64,000 nt of DNA from a virus, in the IMG/VR virus record IMGVR_UViG_3300029286_002355, positions 32,001-96,000 of that record; one strand, written 5' to 3'. A program made the translations under genes and the position numbers. Shown here one piece after another: positions 2,029 through 51,404 of this stretch (within the stretch, counting starts at the first letter, position 1; each line of letters opens with the position of its first letter). The notes beneath the pieces were generated by a model, which searched no databases, had not been told where the DNA came from, and saw nothing but the letters and a program-made list of their open reading frames with translations.

Positions 2029-3339
2029 TTATTTTCCAGAGGGACTAAACTCCACCAGATAGTTAAGACGACATTGACTTGTACGAAACACTATCATTTC
2101 GTTGTTCATGACTCCACTCTGATGGGCTTTTGCAAAATAACTATCATGACCAGTAGGCGGATTGCGACTACATGGACCAGAAGGAACGTAGTAATTACCC
2201 ATTGCAACAGAACAAATAAACATAAACGGATTGTTGTCTTTCGCCCCACCACTCCAATAATTTGTTGCATAGTTTAACGATTTTGTGCTTTGATCGGAGA
2301 AATAAAGTCCATTGTGGAACATCCTGCCGCAGACATGTGGAGAGCTAGCAGGAGGAATAATAAGTCCAGCCCTTAATATTGACAATAGATTACTACACTT
2401 CGTGCCATGCCACAAATCCCAAATATTAGACATCTTAGCTCCGTCTTTTATAAAGGCAGAACTTACCGTATTAATATCAACCGAATAGACCATTTTAACA
2501 TCAAGATTGGCAGACTGATGAACGCTTTGCCAAGTCTTTTTGTAAAATTTACGTATTCTATCAATTTCCTTGCCATCTTCGACAAGGTGAAGCTGGCAAT
2601 CGAAAACTTTTTCCTCTGGAGCAACAACAGCTTTCGTACCATTAACAGGAATAGATGTTGCCGAAACAAGAGATGCTTGTAAACTATCCAAAATTTGCTT
2701 TTGGGCTTGAACCTTAGCAAGATCGCTCCACCACTCCCTAACATCTAATTTTCTATGTCCAATATCGCTAGGTATTAGCATAAGGTAATCATTTGTTTTT
2801 CGCCCCAGATCAATCCCGTAATTTTTTGCCACAACCATGTCTGCAATTTCCTCTAGAATACCGCTGGCAGCATCAATAGTTTTCTGCCCGACCACATCAC
2901 CTGTTGCTGTTGTAAATAAGCCAGTTGTATCATTATATACAATTTTTCCGCCTGTTGATGTCATAATTGAATGGGCGTTTTCTTTAACCAGCCTATCAAT
3001 CAGTTTGGTAACAAGAGGATTATTAGATTTAATTTGACTATGGGCAATGTTTTTTAAATCAGGCGAATTATGATTAACACTTTTGGTTGATGTGGAAGAA
3101 GATGGAGTTCCTACACTTTCTATAACTCTATAGCCCTTCCCCTCTTTTTCCCTCAGCTTTTTTTCTAGAAATGAAACGCCTGCCCCCGGAAACTCTTTAG
3201 ATTGACCAGAATCCCCCACTCGTCCCCATCTTGTAATAACCATTCCGTCACTATAGAGTTCGCCAGTCCAAAACTTATTATGGTTTTCCTCAACGCAATC
3301 GGTCATAATTCTTTTTTCAACTCTGATAGGCGTAGCCAT
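2029..3339 (-). CDS. Poly(ADP-ribose) polymerase-like protein (WGR + regulatory + PARP catalytic domains)
   Basis: NHNKFW...TRWGRVG (WGR); LWHGT, GRMFHNGLYFSD..KSLNYA, NNEMIVF give an H-Y-E triad; start at MATPIR (SD aggag). Confidence 0.9.
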   Translation of the reverse strand: MATPIRVEKRIMTDCVEENHNKFWTGELYSDGMVITRWGRVGDSGQSKEFPGAGVSFLEKKLREKEGKGYRVIESVGTPSSSTSTKSVNHNSPDLKNIAHSQIKSNNPLVTKLIDRLVKENAHSIMTSTGGKIVYNDTTGLFTTATGDVVGQKTIDAASGILEEIADMVVAKNYGIDLGRKTNDYLMLIPSDIGHRKLDVREWWSDLAKVQAQKQILDSLQASLVSATSIPVNGTKAVVAPEEKVFDCQLHLVEDGKEIDRIRKFYKKTWQSVHQSANLDVKMVYSVDINTVSSAFIKDGAKMSNIWDLWHGTKCSNLLSILRAGLIIPPASSPHVCGRMFHNGLYFSDQSTKSLNYATNYWSGGAKDNNPFMFICSVAMGNYYVPSGPCSRNPPTGHDSYFAKAHQSGVMNNEMIVFRTSQCRLNYLVEFSPSGK

Positions 3340-8090: not shown

Positions 8091-9406
8091 CTCCTTTCTT
8101 TAACTTTCTACTATTATACATCTTTAATTCCTGAAATGCAAGAAAATAATCAAAGAAATAAAGAGGAAAAGACTAAATAGTTATAGAAGAACATAATATA
8201 TGAATATCTTAACGTATAATATAAAACTTGAACCGAAAGATAAGGAAGAATATGATCTTCTTTATTCTACACTACTTGAACACCAGAAGGTTTGGAATTA
8301 TATGTCAGAATACGTTTTTAAGTCAAAGAACGTAGATAAACGATTAATCCACGACAAAAATTACCATAAGTGCAGAAAACTGTTTCCCGATTGTCCTTCC
8401 CAAATAATAATTAGAGCCAAGGATTCTGTATTTTCTACCTATAAAACTATTCAATCTAATCATCACAAATTAGAAAAGCCAGCAAAACAAGAAAATCTCT
8501 CTGTTAGGCTTGACAAAAGAATATATACGTTCTTTCCTAATAATAAAATCAAACTAACTACGACAGGAAAAAGAATAATGTGCTCTTACGTTCCCTATTC
8601 TAAATTTCAAGAGATGTTCAATAGATATGCCGTATGTGATCCACTTTTGTTTTTTAAAGACAATCAGTTTTGGCTTTCTGTTTCTTTTGAGGTTAATACC
8701 CCAACTCTTATAGAAAATAGCTGTATTGGAGTGGATTTAGGTATTAAACGGTTTGCAACAACCTCTGAGGGAATTTCTTTTATAGATAGAACGTTCCTTA
8801 AAGAAAAAAGAAAATTGAGATATCTAAAGCGAATCTTACAGTCAAAATCCAAATCTACCTTTTCTCGTTCTGCTCAAAGAAAACTAAAGAACCTTAAGAA
8901 AAGAGAACAAAATAAGAATAAAAATCAAACTCATCTCATTGCTAACAAAATTCTAAACACTAAGTCTAATGTTATTGTTATGGAAGATTTAAGTGGAATT
9001 AAATCTTCTAATAAAGGTAAGAAATTTAATAACAGACAATCTCAAGTTCCTTATTTTGATTTAAGAAGGATACTAACATACAAGGCACTATTGCAAGGAA
9101 AAACAATAGTAACGGTTGACCCTGCTTATACCTCTAAAGATGACTATACTGGTCTTGAACGAGGAATAAGAAGTGGATGCAGATATTACACCTCAGACGG
9201 CAGAGTTTATGATGCAGATTGGAATGCTGCTATAAATATTGCTCAACGTTATTCTATAAGAAAAAGAGTAAAAGGTGTAAAACTCCCTGTTTCGTTTAAT
9301 ATACCTATTGATGGTAAATTAAACCTTATAGGCAAGCCACATCAACTGGCTAATCGTGAGATAAGGTCTCGCAAACCCAATGATCTTTAGTCATTGGGTA
9401 GTTGAT
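8024..9406 (+). mobile_element. IS200/IS605-family tnpB-only element 1
   Basis: LE hairpin GAGCGGAAACCCCGACATCTTTAGTGTGGGGG..GTAAGCGA after TTCAT (8019-8023); RE hairpin CAAACCCAATGA-TCTTTAG-TCATTGGGTAGTTGAT (9372-9406); no tnpA. Confidence 0.85.
8200..9390 (+). CDS. tnpB: RNA-guided endonuclease TnpB (lacks the C-terminal Zn-finger cysteines)
   Basis: RuvC-I IGVDLG, RuvC-II IVMEDL, VDPAYTSK, RuvC-III DADWNAAINI. Confidence 0.9.
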   Translation: MNILTYNIKLEPKDKEEYDLLYSTLLEHQKVWNYMSEYVFKSKNVDKRLIHDKNYHKCRKLFPDCPSQIIIRAKDSVFSTYKTIQSNHHKLEKPAKQENLSVRLDKRIYTFFPNNKIKLTTTGKRIMCSYVPYSKFQEMFNRYAVCDPLLFFKDNQFWLSVSFEVNTPTLIENSCIGVDLGIKRFATTSEGISFIDRTFLKEKRKLRYLKRILQSKSKSTFSRSAQRKLKNLKKREQNKNKNQTHLIANKILNTKSNVIVMEDLSGIKSSNKGKKFNNRQSQVPYFDLRRILTYKALLQGKTIVTVDPAYTSKDDYTGLERGIRSGCRYYTSDGRVYDADWNAAINIAQRYSIRKRVKGVKLPVSFNIPIDGKLNLIGKPHQLANREIRSRKPNDL

Positions 9407-20030: not shown

Positions 20031-20212
20031 TGTTTTACCCCTTCTATTTTTATATTATACACATTTATGATAATATCTTCTATGTATTGGGATAGAAACG
20101 ATTCTAATTCTTCTACTATAAGCGATTCTATATCAATGTGGTGTGATCTAATTACTTCTAGTTTTTGGACTAAATCAACTAACCTAACAGTACTGGTAAT
20201 ATTGAGTTGCAT
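20027..20212 (-). CDS. Small protein, possible ribbon-helix-helix regulator
   Basis: 61 aa with strand-helix-helix pattern (ITSTVRL / LVQKLE / IESLIVEELESFL); SD aaggag. Confidence 0.5.
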   Translation of the reverse strand: MQLNITSTVRLVDLVQKLEVIRSHHIDIESLIVEELESFLSQYIEDIIINVYNIKIEGVKQ

Positions 20213-20340
20213 TGGCGGCTTCTCCTTATTATATTAAACACAAAAGCCCAAGAATACCTCCATAGAAGCCGCCAAGCTAACAGGGGAGAGTCTCCAAGGG
20301 CTTTTGTTATGTTCATTTTATTTAGCTTTGGCGGCTTTTT
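20212..20340 (-). ncRNA. Putative pseudoknot/switch leader RNA, copy 1
   Basis: P1 20322-20337 pairs with 20266-20280, which is the loop of a long hairpin closed by 20298-20307/20240-20249; 10 nt of P1a repeated at the start codon (20212-20221). Confidence 0.6.
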
Positions 20341-20380
20341 CATACACTAATATTATACAATAAAAGCCATCAAAATACCT

Positions 20381-31953: not shown

Positions 31954-32232
31954 TTAAATCGGCACATTTTCGGAATATGCAGCACCGTTGGGAATATGCA
32001 TCCATCGTTTAACATATTTATCAGGGAAAGGCGGCAGAGTTGTAGTAGGAATTGTATCCCATTCTCTTTTTTCGTAGTTAAACTGGCCACAAAAAAATCC
32101 CGCTACATTTGCGTTTGGCGGTTTAGTTTCAAAAAATACCAAGACGGAATAAGGACTACTATTATCAATTAAAGGTGGTTTTGCCACCCAATTATCAAAC
32201 CATACTTCGTTATCTGTTTTCCCATTAATCAT
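31954..32232 (-). CDS. Hypothetical protein
   Basis: 92-aa ORF, SD aaggag. Confidence 0.6.
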   Translation of the reverse strand: MINGKTDNEVWFDNWVAKPPLIDNSSPYSVLVFFETKPPNANVAGFFCGQFNYEKREWDTIPTTTLPPFPDKYVKRWMHIPNGAAYSENVPI

Positions 32233-46019: not shown

Positions 46020-46148
46020 ATAAACTTTCTTTTTGCCATTTTTTAATTTTCGACGCCAATACCCTCTTTCTATTTTACGAATTTTGTTACAACGATCACA
46101 TTTTACATATTTATATTCTCTACACTTTATTTTTTCTAAATTTTTCAT

Positions 46149-46266
46149 TTTACCCTTTAAAATAGACAAGCTCCTAACAGCTATCTTTGACGGCGGCTAA
46201 ACCATTTCAAGACAAGACCATTAAGAGCTTATCACTATATTTCTATTTTAAGGTTTAGCCGCCTTT
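46149..46266 (-). ncRNA. Putative pseudoknot/switch leader RNA, copy 2
   Basis: 12-bp P1 46252-46263 with 46192-46203, the loop of a long hairpin closed by 46223-46232/46166-46175; TATAAT at 46273-46278. Confidence 0.6.
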
Positions 46267-48310: not shown

Positions 48311-49156
48311 TTATCGTTCCAGTTTCTGAACGTAATAAAATCTGTAAAATGATCCATATTTAGTCCCGCTTCTACCCCTAAGAAACCCAGTAACTTCTGT
48401 GTATGTGTTACTATGTGGAAAATAAAAGTCACATTTGCATCTTCCTAAGCCATACATCTTATTATGTTCGAAGATTTTCCCTTCTGTCTTATATTTTAGA
48501 TACATATAAGCTTCTGCAACAGAATGGCAGAATGTTCCATCTTGAAGGACGATACCCTGAGAACAAAGGGGGCAAGAACTTGTTGTGTTCCTGTGGTATA
48601 TCTTTGCTTCGTATTCATGCCCGTTTGGACAGATCCACCAAACTTTATACTTGCTGTTGGGAAGAACGCCATATGGAGTTATGCCTTTATTTCTGGTTGG
48701 ATGCCATTCTTTTGTCAACTCTGGATTTTGAGTCGCCAGACAGTTATCTATACATGCCATATGATTTGAACAATACGGACATCCCCTAGTATTTTTGGTT
48801 CTGTTCCCGACAGAAGATTTCCACTGATGTCCCTTTGAGCATATCCATTTATATTTCTTGGAAGAAAACGGTAATACGTCATACGGACTACATTTATTTT
48901 CAAAAGACCACTCAAGTACTAGCTCTGGAAAAAGATTACCCAAACAATTTTCTAGGCTTACTATCTTATTTTCGCAATATGGACATCCATATCCACCATA
49001 TCTATTGTCTACTCTCGCCATCCAAGAATGACCACAACTGCATTTCCACCAAACCTTTTCTTTACTCCATACCGATATTTTAGATGGATCTAATTCATTT
49101 TTAGCATCATCCCAATCAATATATAACTTAGAATTCTTAACATATTCTCGTTTCAT
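48311..49156 (-). CDS. Zinc-ribbon-repeat (DUF4379-like) protein with PD-(D/E)xK-like nuclease, paralog of 19062-20030
   Basis: WWKCSCGHSW, CPYC repeats, LTKEWHPTRN; C-terminal HSVAEA..CDFYFP..YTEVTG; start MKREY after SD ggag. Confidence 0.75.
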   Translation of the reverse strand: MKREYVKNSKLYIDWDDAKNELDPSKISVWSKEKVWWKCSCGHSWMARVDNRYGGYGCPYCENKIVSLENCLGNLFPELVLEWSFENKCSPYDVLPFSSKKYKWICSKGHQWKSSVGNRTKNTRGCPYCSNHMACIDNCLATQNPELTKEWHPTRNKGITPYGVLPNSKYKVWWICPNGHEYEAKIYHRNTTSSCPLCSQGIVLQDGTFCHSVAEAYMYLKYKTEGKIFEHNKMYGLGRCKCDFYFPHSNTYTEVTGFLRGRSGTKYGSFYRFYYVQKLER

Positions 49157-49270
49157 TTTCGCAGTCTCCAAAAAAGTAGGCCCAAACCAATCACGAGACT
49201 GCGAAATCAAGAAGTGACCAGAATGGACCTACAAATTTTTCCTATTATATAAGTTTCGCAGTCTTATATA
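49157..49270 (-). ncRNA. Putative pseudoknot/switch leader RNA, copy 3
   Basis: AGACTGCGAAA (49254-49264) complementary to hairpin loop 49196-49206; identical 11-mer at 49157-49167 directly before ATG; stem 49224-49232/49176-49184 followed by U6. Confidence 0.65.
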
Positions 49271-49292
49271 ATATTTCTACGTAGAGACAGTT

Positions 49293-51311
49293 TCATCCTT
49301 CAATCAATTTCAGAAAATCTTCCTGAGTAATAATTGGGACATTTAGCTCAAGTGCTTTTTGGTATTTCCCTTTCATTGTCTCCCCATCAAAGACCAATGC
49401 CGTCAATTCTTTAGATACAGAAGCAAGTTTACCACCATTCTCTCCGACCATTCTTTCCATAGTATTTCTATCGGGCGAATCAAAGGAACCCGTGAAGCAG
49501 AACTTTTTCCCTGCCAATTTATTACTGGCCTGAGCAACCTTTTTAATGCTGACATACTTCAGAAGAAGCTTAATTTCTCCACGACGAGCTTTCCAAGAAG
49601 TAATGAAGCTGTTTGCCTTAGCTTGACCAAATCCGCTAATTTTCAAAAGATCGTCAACCGTCAATTTGTCAATATCATCAATGGAAGGAGCAATATCAGA
49701 AATGTCTTTTGCACTTGTCTGAATATTCTCAATTCCCAATGCCCGAATAAAAATAGGTAGCGAAACTTCCGTAACCGATTTAATACTTTCCAAAAGGTTA
49801 TCGTAAGTCTTCTGCCCCATTTGAGACTTAAGATATGCATACTTACGGAAAGGATGTTCTGTTGCCCTATCGTTATCAAGCATGTAATACATTTCAGCAA
49901 TATTGGAAACAATTTGCTTCTTGTCCCAAGCCATTTCCTCTTTATCGGTCAATTTTGAAATCGTCCCTGCCCCAAACCCCTTAACGCCAATTTCCTTGAA
50001 CCAATAATCAATCTTCTTGTTAAGCTGTGTCGAGCAATTGTAATTCTTGCAAACCAATTCAACCTTGTTATCATCCCAATCAATTGCCTCTCCGCAAGCA
50101 GGACATTTGGTGGGGATATCAATGGTCTTATTTCCCATCTTCTTTACTTTAACGATTTGGGGAATGATATCGCCCTTCTTCGCAATTAAAACGATACTGC
50201 CAATCTTAATTGCGTCTTTACCAACCAACGCCCCAAAATTATGAAGCGTAGCCCTTGTCATCATGGCTCCACCCAATTCAACGGGCTTCAGAATTCCAAC
50301 AGGCGTAAGCTTACCTGTTCTACCAACTCCAACTTCAACGCCAATCAATTCCGTCTCTTTTTGTTCGGGCGGAAATTTTACAGCACGATTTGATTTAGGC
50401 TTTCGTCCACCTGCAACAGAGCCCATTTTCTTTGCCTTTTTAATATCGTTTAACTTAACCACGATTCCGTCAATATCATAATGGAGCATATTTCTATCAA
50501 TCGCATCCATGTAATATTGAACAGCCTTGGCAATTTCAGCATATCCAATCCCAGTTTTGGTTCTTTTGGTTGATTTGATAAGAGTGGGAAAACCCAGCTT
50601 ATCCAAAAACTCATTCTTCTCAACTTCCGTATCAAAATCGTGTCGGCAAATTTCATAAGCAACAAATCGAAGCCCCTTCTTGCGGGTTTCTTCGGGGTCT
50701 TTTTCGTTCATGGCTCCCGCTGTAAAGTTTCTCGGATTCTTGTATTCTCCACCAACCGAAGTATGCCATTTCTTATAAAAGTCCTGTCGGTTCTTATGGC
50801 ACTCTCCACGAACTTCAATCTCGTCCTTAAAGGGGATCGTATGTTGAACCCCTTCTACCGTCTTGGCCTTTTCGGTAACATCAATACCTGTAATTCCATC
50901 CCCTCTCGTAAGAGCTTGAACTAATTTACCGCCCTTATAAAGAAGACCAAGAGAAAGACCATCCACCTTATGTTGAAGAACGAAAGAGGCATCCTTTAGA
51001 TCGGGATATTGAGATCGAAGCCATTGTTCAAACTGTTCAACCGAAAGCGACTTACTAAGAGACCCCATAGTAACCTGATGGGGAACATCTTGCCCCTGAA
51101 TGGCATCTACGGCAATACCACCTACTTCATTGAAAAAGTCATTGCCGGGTTCCAAAGCTTCGCATTCGTAATACTCCTGATCGTAGTCTTTGTCGGAAAT
51201 AGGCGAATCTCCATTGGACTCATAACGTTCGGCGCAATAACGCAAAAATCCGATACGATCACCAATTAGGGCCGACTTATCAACTTTCTTTTGCTTCGAG
51301 AAATCTTTCAT
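49293..51311 (-). CDS. ligA: NAD-dependent DNA ligase
   Basis: KVDGLS, EVRGE, NPRNFTAG, DGIVVK, VGRTGKLTP, RATLHN, CPACG Zn finger, C-terminal BRCT (FCFTG); SD aaggag. Confidence 0.96.
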   Translation of the reverse strand: MKDFSKQKKVDKSALIGDRIGFLRYCAERYESNGDSPISDKDYDQEYYECEALEPGNDFFNEVGGIAVDAIQGQDVPHQVTMGSLSKSLSVEQFEQWLRSQYPDLKDASFVLQHKVDGLSLGLLYKGGKLVQALTRGDGITGIDVTEKAKTVEGVQHTIPFKDEIEVRGECHKNRQDFYKKWHTSVGGEYKNPRNFTAGAMNEKDPEETRKKGLRFVAYEICRHDFDTEVEKNEFLDKLGFPTLIKSTKRTKTGIGYAEIAKAVQYYMDAIDRNMLHYDIDGIVVKLNDIKKAKKMGSVAGGRKPKSNRAVKFPPEQKETELIGVEVGVGRTGKLTPVGILKPVELGGAMMTRATLHNFGALVGKDAIKIGSIVLIAKKGDIIPQIVKVKKMGNKTIDIPTKCPACGEAIDWDDNKVELVCKNYNCSTQLNKKIDYWFKEIGVKGFGAGTISKLTDKEEMAWDKKQIVSNIAEMYYMLDNDRATEHPFRKYAYLKSQMGQKTYDNLLESIKSVTEVSLPIFIRALGIENIQTSAKDISDIAPSIDDIDKLTVDDLLKISGFGQAKANSFITSWKARRGEIKLLLKYVSIKKVAQASNKLAGKKFCFTGSFDSPDRNTMERMVGENGGKLASVSKELTALVFDGETMKGKYQKALELNVPIITQEDFLKLIEG

Positions 51312-51404
51312 AGTATCTCCTTTTACTTGCTTAATTATACAATCTTTTCCCATCGTCAATGAAGATACTGTAACAGAAATGCAGACAAAAAGCAAGCATA
51401 AAAG

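Follow-up and report, generated by a model that had tools for sequence, protein, structure and literature searches.

Homing endonucleases need to be expressed highly enough to spread but sparingly enough to spare the phage and the neighboring essential genes. Translational attenuators of the ermC and cat type work with four RNA segments and a leader peptide, the translation of which remodels the segments. In the IncI-alpha and IncB plasmids, a pseudoknot between a loop and the ribosome site activates translation of repZ, and a trans-acting antisense RNA acts as the competitor. The homing endonuclease genes of T-even phages (I-TevI, I-TevII, I-TevIII, segB, and Aeh1 mobE) carry hairpins that sequester the ribosome site and have a late or middle promoter embedded in them (PMC2988022). 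Here we analyze the 143 bases (49157–49299) upstream of the nuclease gene P0001 in a window of 64,000 nucleotides (positions 32,001 to 96,000) from the viral record IMGVR_UViG_3300029286_002355, which has a genome of 186 kb with 36% G+C. All genes of the region lie on the minus strand, and coordinates are window coordinates on that strand unless marked as genome. The interval appears to comprise the promoter and 5' leader of a mobile homing-endonuclease cassette that sits between an NAD-dependent DNA ligase gene and an AAA/FtsH-like gene. We call the leader copy 3, as the same phage carries two further leaders of this layout (copies 1 and 2).

As in the T-even phages, a selfish nuclease gene lies in a polycistronic unit, its Shine–Dalgarno (SD) sequence and AUG can be base-paired, and its own promoter is placed such that the identity of the transcript would decide access to the ribosome site (PMC2988022). 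In copy 3, a perfect 12-nt complement can cover the last SD bases and the spacer up to the AUG (-19.5 kcal/mol). Unlike in the T-even leaders, the promoter is not inside the structure. The inhibitory strand (49206–49195) lies downstream of the promoter motif (49299–49275), in a hairpin loop, and both kinds of transcript therefore carry it; what the predicted start would remove is the mask over a decoy. The single hairpin of the T-even leaders is replaced by a relay of three or four elements with pseudoknot-type loop pairing, in which selectivity would come from decoy and mask. We infer that copy 3 is a more elaborate form of the T4-type occlusion of ribosome sites, with the 5'-terminal decoy and its mask as the new parts. 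Among the papers searched, none described a decoy-plus-loop design for endonuclease genes.

In the mechanism that we propose, a long terminator-like hairpin would offer a 12-nt sequence complementary to the ribosome site in its loop. Pairing of this loop with the stretch from SD sequence to AUG would close translation, whereas pairing with an identical decoy at the 5' terminus would open it. On read-through RNA from the ligase gene, upstream sequence would fold over the decoy, so that the loop could pair with the ribosome site and the nuclease would stay untranslated. In transcripts that start at the promoter of the cassette itself, the decoy would be naked and, as it is made first, would capture the loop and keep the ribosome site accessible. 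We give this relay of mask, decoy, anti-site loop, and ribosome site, by which the nuclease is translated from its own transcript and not from read-through RNA, a probability of roughly 45%. The broader claim that a cis-acting RNA structure limits translation of the nuclease is likely to be correct.

Architecture and conservation of the leader

The sequence elements, their conservation, and their strand can be read directly from the DNA. A spacer of 137 nt separates the TGA of the ligase gene (49293–51395) from the ATG of P0001 (49156–49154). The 11-mer AGACTGCGAAA is found at 49264–49254 and again at 49167–49157, directly 5' of the ATG, and its complement TTTCGCAGTCT lies at 49206–49196. All three sites fall within 108 bases on the gene (minus) strand, and the 64-kb window holds no further copy, even with one mismatch allowed. 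The first-pass annotation had proposed that one 11-mer is used three times in this leader, and the exact sites bear this out.

At its 5' side, the leader is preceded by a promoter-like motif, AAGGA-N14-CGTAGAA (49275–49299), which represents the second promoter class of the phage and overlaps the final ligase codons and the TGA. It is followed by an A/U hairpin of 10 bp (49244–49272), formed by ATTATATAAG (49272–49263) and CTTATATAAT (49253–49244), with the decoy in its 9-nt loop. The decoy is the 5' copy of AGACTGCGAAA (49254–49264), and the transcript from the cassette's promoter is predicted to begin there or within 1–2 nt of it. The hairpin around the 5' copy had been noted before, but as one of 8 bp with the 11-mer in its loop; the stem has 10 bp, and the first two bases of the 11-mer (AG) are part of it, which leaves the other nine in the loop. 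An A/U-rich single-stranded linker (49233–49243) leads from the decoy hairpin to the main hairpin, and a long A/U linker is common to all four leaders considered here (copies 1–3 and that of the related locus L002, see below).

The main hairpin (49176–49232; -24.3 kcal/mol) consists of a 9-bp outer stem, a UU/UU internal loop, an 8-bp inner stem, and a 19-nt apical loop. The anti-ribosome-site 12-mer UUUCGCAGUCUC (49195–49206) occupies the 3' side of this loop and abuts the 3' arm. Directly after the hairpin comes U6 (49170–49175), which could be a terminator-like tail or a U-rich standby site, and then GGAG. The ribosome-site copy GAGACUGCGAAA (49157–49168) comprises the last three bases of this SD sequence and the entire spacer to the AUG. 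These positions agree with the earlier description of a complement within the main hairpin loop, a U6 behind the hairpin (49175–49170), and a third copy that spans SD sequence to ATG. The complementarity between loop and ribosome-site copy even amounts to 12 perfect base pairs (GAGACUGCGAAA), which are formed in the minimum-energy fold. The placement of the complement at the 3' side of the apical loop and of the third copy between SD sequence and ATG recurs across the leaders. With its GC-rich foot and U6, the hairpin resembles a terminator and probably also terminates part of the transcripts, but it is 57 nt long with a 19-nt loop and receives no call in a consensus terminator scan. A search against Rfam yielded no match in the window at gathering score and only chance-level matches to miRNAs and snoRNAs (E 0.6–9). 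Mimicry of a tRNA anticodon loop by CUGCGAA was considered and dropped, as this form is missing from copies 1 and 2.

The 186-kb genome holds triads of the type X...revcomp(X)...X with k>=10 at three places, and 30 block-shuffled genomes hold none. At k=9, five places are observed versus a shuffle mean of 0.07. The third place with k>=10 was read as the end of a TnpB element that is unrelated to the leaders. It lies at genome 11882–12012 (minus strand), where an exact triad (TCAAATGCCG, with a perfect hairpin) stands at the 3' end of a 353-residue open reading frame (ORF) preceded by one of 137 residues. Judged by eye, these ORFs are probably a TnpB/TnpA-type element, and the triad would belong to its right end or guide RNA and not to a leader.

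The closest relative of the nuclease, P0006 (56% identical), is encoded directly behind a ligase gene (55% identical) on contigs L002–L004, which come from other samples. The spacer of L002 carries the same design at the same site: GGACTGCGAATCC stands near the 5' side, GGATTCGCAGTCCC at the 3' side of the loop of a hairpin (GTCTTGTC...GACAAGAC) that is followed by U6 (2995–3000), and GGGACTGCGAA-C-ATG at the start of the gene. A 9-nt core is identical between window and L002 at all three places (27/27), and the remaining aligned spacer is 47% identical. The hairpin stems of copy 3 and L002 share no sequence, both stems having been rewritten. The first position of the 11-mer changes from A, A, and U in the window to G, G, and C in L002, across the three elements together.

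Predicted transcript origin and proposed masking of the decoy

The main promoter of the phage is an extended -10 element, TGTATAAT, with ∼50 copies. Copies 1 and 2 each have such a promoter 0–8 nt upstream of their 5' element, whereas copy 3 is preceded by the second motif instead. That motif had been reported as AGG-N15-CGTAGAA before the hairpin; it is present at 49299–49275, but the bare pattern is not rarer than expected by chance, and a loose form of it is not enriched (50 matches versus a shuffle mean of 37). There is, however, a consistent group, AGGAA-N13/14-TATAGAA (with the variants CGTAGAA, TATGAA, and CACGAA), upstream of TnpB genes, endonuclease genes, and a few other genes. Roughly six genes of this second class have their ATG exactly 9 nt downstream of the motif (after TAGAA) and no SD sequence, which suggests leaderless mRNAs. 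The motif regions of copy 3 and L002 (AAGGA-N14-CGCAGAA in the latter) align without gaps, and in both the repeat starts 10 nt past the motif. Because of the 9-nt distance to the ATG elsewhere and this conserved 10-nt distance from motif to repeat, the 5' copy would constitute the first bases of the cassette's transcript. For copy 3, we thus place the predicted start of the own transcript at ∼49265, on the first decoy base.

In three of the four leaders, the sequence just upstream of the predicted start is able to fold over the decoy. The putative mask of copy 3 is the 10-bp A/U hairpin. As the predicted start would cut off its 5' arm, this hairpin is whole only on read-through RNA, where it contributes -5.3 kcal/mol, compared with 0.0 kcal/mol on RNA from 49265. 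In L002, the mask would be a fourth exact repeat, GGATTCGCAG, which overlaps a -10-like element (-15.9 kcal/mol), and in copy 1 a promoter-containing hairpin (-10.9 kcal/mol). The masks lie upstream of the start only, and RNAs beginning at the predicted sites lack structure at the decoy (0 to -1.3 kcal/mol).

The loop has two potential partners in each leader. The duplex with the 5' copy and that with the ribosome site amount to -22.9 and -22.0 kcal/mol in copy 1, -22.6 and -5.4 kcal/mol in copy 2, -16.0 and -19.5 kcal/mol in copy 3, and -24.7 and -20.5 kcal/mol in L002. Upon nested folding of copy 1 and L002, pairing between decoy and loop dropped from 0.80–1.00 to 0.00 once the upstream sequence was added; copy 2 showed no effect of read-through. 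The first-pass annotation had named no trigger for the switch, and the arrangement of starts and masks points to the promoter from which the transcript originates as the likely trigger.

The resulting scheme has parallels in the two other systems mentioned above. Similar to ermC and cat, the four repeats of L002 can pair 1:2 and 3:4 (closed) or 2:3 (open), with 1 resembling 3, 2 resembling 4, and segment 4 being the ribosome site. In contrast to ermC and cat, there is no conserved leader peptide on which a ribosome could stall, and we propose that the switch is set by where the 5' end lies. A leader peptide was in fact considered and dropped: copy 3 and L002 do have short ORFs over their leaders, of 10 and 20 codons, respectively, but these agree neither in position nor in length or sequence, cannot be aligned, and are out of register. 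As in repZ, the apical loop of an upstream hairpin pairs near the ribosome site of a downstream gene, and a competitor for the loop decides the outcome. Unlike in repZ, the pairing covers the SD sequence and spacer and should therefore repress, and the competitor acts in cis.

Weighing the alternatives

Several points weigh against a relay of this kind. The design is present in only two independent orthologs, and a triad scan of 79 distant DUF4379 nuclease loci found it absent. We infer the start sites, termination, pairing and folding in vivo, and the effect on translation. Pairing of the decoy with the loop of an intact hairpin makes a pseudoknot, and folding was restricted to nested structures, with energies approximated from duplex and hairpin values. 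With only 7–8 nt between the foot of the hairpin and the ribosome-site copy, the linker may be too short to allow a pseudoknot while all 17 bp of the stem are formed. Copy 2 lacks a mask and has only a vestigial third copy. In copy 3 itself, the pairing of the ribosome site is 3.5 kcal/mol stronger than that of the decoy, and nested folding gives the closed state for both transcript forms; the open state may be only transient here. Finally, the core is perfectly conserved despite 45% divergence of the proteins, and a sequence-specific reader could exist. The earlier proposal of a two-state design is supported insofar as the data favor a design at the RNA level with two mutually exclusive partners for the loop, given the triad retained in L002 with rewritten stems, the G·U pairs in the folds of the gene strand, the constant sites of complement and third copy, and the plain occlusion of ribosome sites in two other endonuclease genes of this phage (see below). 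Its description of copy 3 as the clearest such switch does not hold, since copy 3 has the weakest decoy of the four leaders and plain folding leaves it closed.

These last features would also be expected of a constitutive brake, in which hairpin and U6 form a partial terminator, the loop occludes the ribosome site, and a toxic nuclease is made at a trickle. The 5' copy would then provide a short kinetic window or, by pairing, protect the 5' end of the RNA, and transcripts would not be discriminated. Besides the closed state of copy 3, such a brake is consistent with the GC-rich foot and U6 of the hairpins in copy 3 and L002 and with the terminators at the 5' ends of T4 mobE and segF (PMC2988022). 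It leaves unexplained why decoy-masking elements lie just upstream of the predicted starts in three of the four leaders, why the mask of L002 is a fourth exact repeat over a -10 element, and why the decoy pairs more strongly than the ribosome site in copy 1, copy 2, and L002. We consider a pure brake unlikely.

The identity of the 9-nt core at 27 of 27 positions between nucleases that are only 56% identical could also point to DNA operators, the alternative raised in the first-pass annotation, with two direct sites and one inverted, by which the zinc-ribbon nuclease or another phage protein represses its own promoter. The operator bound by I-TevI indeed extends over the late promoter of its gene (PMC2988022), one repeat of L002 overlaps a -10-like element, and some paralogs are accompanied by a small ribbon-helix-helix ORF, presumably for DNA-level control, in the nuclease family. 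But operators give no reason why the inverted copy always lies in the apical loop of a hairpin with covarying stems and gene-strand G·U pairs, why the third copy always spans SD sequence to ATG, or why the same layout stands ahead of an unrelated HNH gene. Moreover, neither the ligase and AAA genes nor the endonuclease-free alleles (L131–L133) contain an 11-mer look-alike with two or fewer mismatches. Control by operators appears quite improbable.

The strand of the fold bears on the same question and on that of a regulatory RNA. The main hairpin of copy 3 has a z value of -5.6 on the gene strand. Folding energies on the gene strand and the opposite strand are -24.3 and -11.5 kcal/mol for copy 3, -27.9 and -10.7 kcal/mol for copy 2, and -28.5 and -22.8 kcal/mol for copy 1. 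Because the hairpins rely on G·U pairs (five in copy 3, eight in copy 2), the fold belongs to the gene strand. A small RNA could arise from the leader in two ways: the U6-terminated leader might act in trans through its loop on the full-length nuclease mRNA, or the opposite strand might give rise to an antisense RNA. From its own start to U6, the leader RNA would measure ∼95 nt with a terminator hairpin and U tail, and the opposite strand shows a hairpin flanked by A6 and then T5. Yet the opposite-strand fold is much weaker in copies 2 and 3, and no promoter of the TGTATAAT, second-class, or sigma-70-like type was found to face outward from the first codons, which also separates the locus from a cis-antisense RNA cassette similar to IS10 RNA-OUT. 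A loop acting in trans, for its part, would be occupied by the decoy of the same RNA. A small RNA seems still less probable than operators.

It is very improbable that the direct copies are the target-site duplication of a ∼97-bp element (hairpin, U-run, and SD sequence) that had entered a short leader, the loop being a remnant of complementarity-based targeting: removal of the stretch between the repeats does leave promoter, 24 nt, and ATG, as in other genes of that promoter class, but the triad core was kept while the rest fell to 47% identity, which indicates long residence under selection instead of a recent insertion, neither the genome nor ∼650 kb of related loci hold another copy of such an element, and no small element is known to carry an internal complement of its own duplication.

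An extension of the proposed relay appears rather doubtful to us. Here, a protein-free RNA relay that senses promoter origin would travel with homing-endonuclease cassettes, and in its strongest form the pseudoknot between decoy and loop would also modulate termination at the U-run and thereby set read-through and translation together.

The nuclease cassette, its relatives, and biological significance

The regulated gene P0001 (48311–49156) encodes a protein of 281 amino acids with three DUF4379 zinc-ribbon repeats and a PD-(D/E)xK-like C-terminal nuclease domain, as in free-standing homing endonucleases. The C-terminal domain contains a conserved D...E-V-T nuclease-like motif, the PHROG families of P0001 relatives are annotated as endonucleases, and the genome encodes four paralogs. 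Together with a patchy presence at the ligase site, these features identify P0001 as a gene of the homing-endonuclease type. Our phage collection and IMG/VR contained no close relatives of the window DNA or of P0001, and the ligase relatives found there are at most 31% identical. A closer ligase relative (L131, 72% identical) has an ordinary promoter and a 159-residue secreted-type protein in place of the nuclease, which indicates that the cassette is an insertion with a patchy distribution. In the contexts of two other clade relatives (P0062 and P0048), a 454-residue nuclease of the P0001 family is encoded upstream of the ligase gene; thus, the ligase gene is flanked by homing sites on both sides. 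The longer P0062 contig has a 61-residue ORF directly before the 454-residue nuclease, as in copy 1, and the P0048 contig has no abutting ORF.

P0001 stops ∼40 residues short of a C-terminal block (KKKxYVE...FEFIQ) that is conserved in nine relatives (window 48311–48440), and its stop codon lies 12 nt ahead of the next gene. P0001 may be a truncated nuclease that has lost its activity.

Copies 1 and 2 share the layout of copy 3 with unrelated sequences, as the first-pass annotation had stated. Copy 1 (20210–20345) has its decoy at 20337–20322, the anti-site at 20280–20264, and the ribosome-site copy at 20223–20212; it precedes a 61-residue ORF and a paralogous nuclease (43% identical). Copy 2 (46146–46266) precedes an HNH gene that is split by a TnpB element. 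Its decoy lies at 46266–46252 and the complement at 46203–46192 in the hairpin loop, and its third copy is only degenerate. Copies 1 and 2 also match each other: GGCGGCT in the 5' element of copy 2 is the complement of AGCCGCC, which copy 1 carries in both its 5' element and its ribosome-site copy, and the copy 2 loop is similar to the copy 1 decoy. The two leaders might engage in cross-talk, but the match could also have arisen by chance (about 1%).

Two further endonuclease genes of this phage show the plain form of occlusion known from T4 I-TevI, segB, and mobE (PMC2988022). In a GIY-YIG endonuclease gene (1108–1950), ATAATATAACC overlaps the gene's own TGTATAAT promoter and is complementary over 11 nt (site 1950–1993) to GGTTATATTAT, which covers SD sequence and AUG. 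As judged from this arrangement, the leader is a classical T4-style occlusion that would act on read-through RNA only. In a gene for a 451-residue Vsr/PD-(D/E)xK-like endonuclease (genome 21723–23078, minus strand), a 10-bp hairpin of ATAATCACTC and GAGTGATTAT lies over SD sequence and AUG (genome 23077–23112, ∼8.9 kb before the start of the window).

Sites of the second promoter-like class lie at 8164, 45948, 54823, 54903, 57652, 59169, and 61240 of the window, at genome 119459, 148829, 156405, and 177971, and at 1000–1060 of L134, an unrelated metagenome contig on which the motif heads a nuclease cassette. Other zinc-ribbon nuclease genes have an overlapping ORF of 54–55 residues ahead of them (genome 184930–185130, minus strand; L011:613–777; L134:1055–1219). 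These ORFs show weak Pfam matches to RHH_1 (L011) and DUF6290 (L134), and that of the paralog appears ribbon-helix-helix-like by eye. Standing in place of the folded leader, such an ORF is presumably an alternative module for DNA-level control in the zinc-ribbon nuclease family. Upstream of a fourth paralog (genome 124090–124180, minus strand), CTGCGAAT precedes a promoter-like motif, and ATTCGCA is found in codons 3–5; this 7-bp long-range complement uses the TGCGAA core of copy 3 and L002 and is weak on its own.

Surveys beyond these loci retrieved no additional leader. A triad scan of ∼650 kb of other loci gave no further instance, and one locus from the triad scans (L077) was rejected as an ordinary terminator stem. 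A pattern scan for the exact core in metagenome contigs returned six contigs, and the two inspected (L007 and L008) contain unrelated tandem repeats. In L008:200–700, from a freshwater metagenome, tandem units of ∼118 bp each carry an inverted repeat (AAAGACTGCGAATAAGAAT...ATTCTTATTCGCAGTCTTT) with a 9-mer shared with the leader, apparently by chance. A search with the C-terminal region of P0006 matched P0006 alone. A nuclease-domain profile search yielded 217 cluster representatives, and the leader was absent in the three contexts fetched (L135–L137).

T4 solves the expression of its homing endonucleases with one hairpin and a well-placed promoter, whereas this phage lineage appears to use a modular combination of decoy, anti-site loop, and mask. 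As the three leaders of this genome are unrelated in sequence, the modular leader tolerates complete sequence replacement, and it serves nucleases of different families. The signature X...revcomp(X) in a hairpin loop...X-ATG can be used to find such leaders elsewhere. If the proposed mechanism is true, the leader would be a compact natural RNA device that reads the origin of a transcript without a protein or ligand. It would then provide a design for synthetic control of translation and would help to explain how selfish genes become domesticated in large phages.

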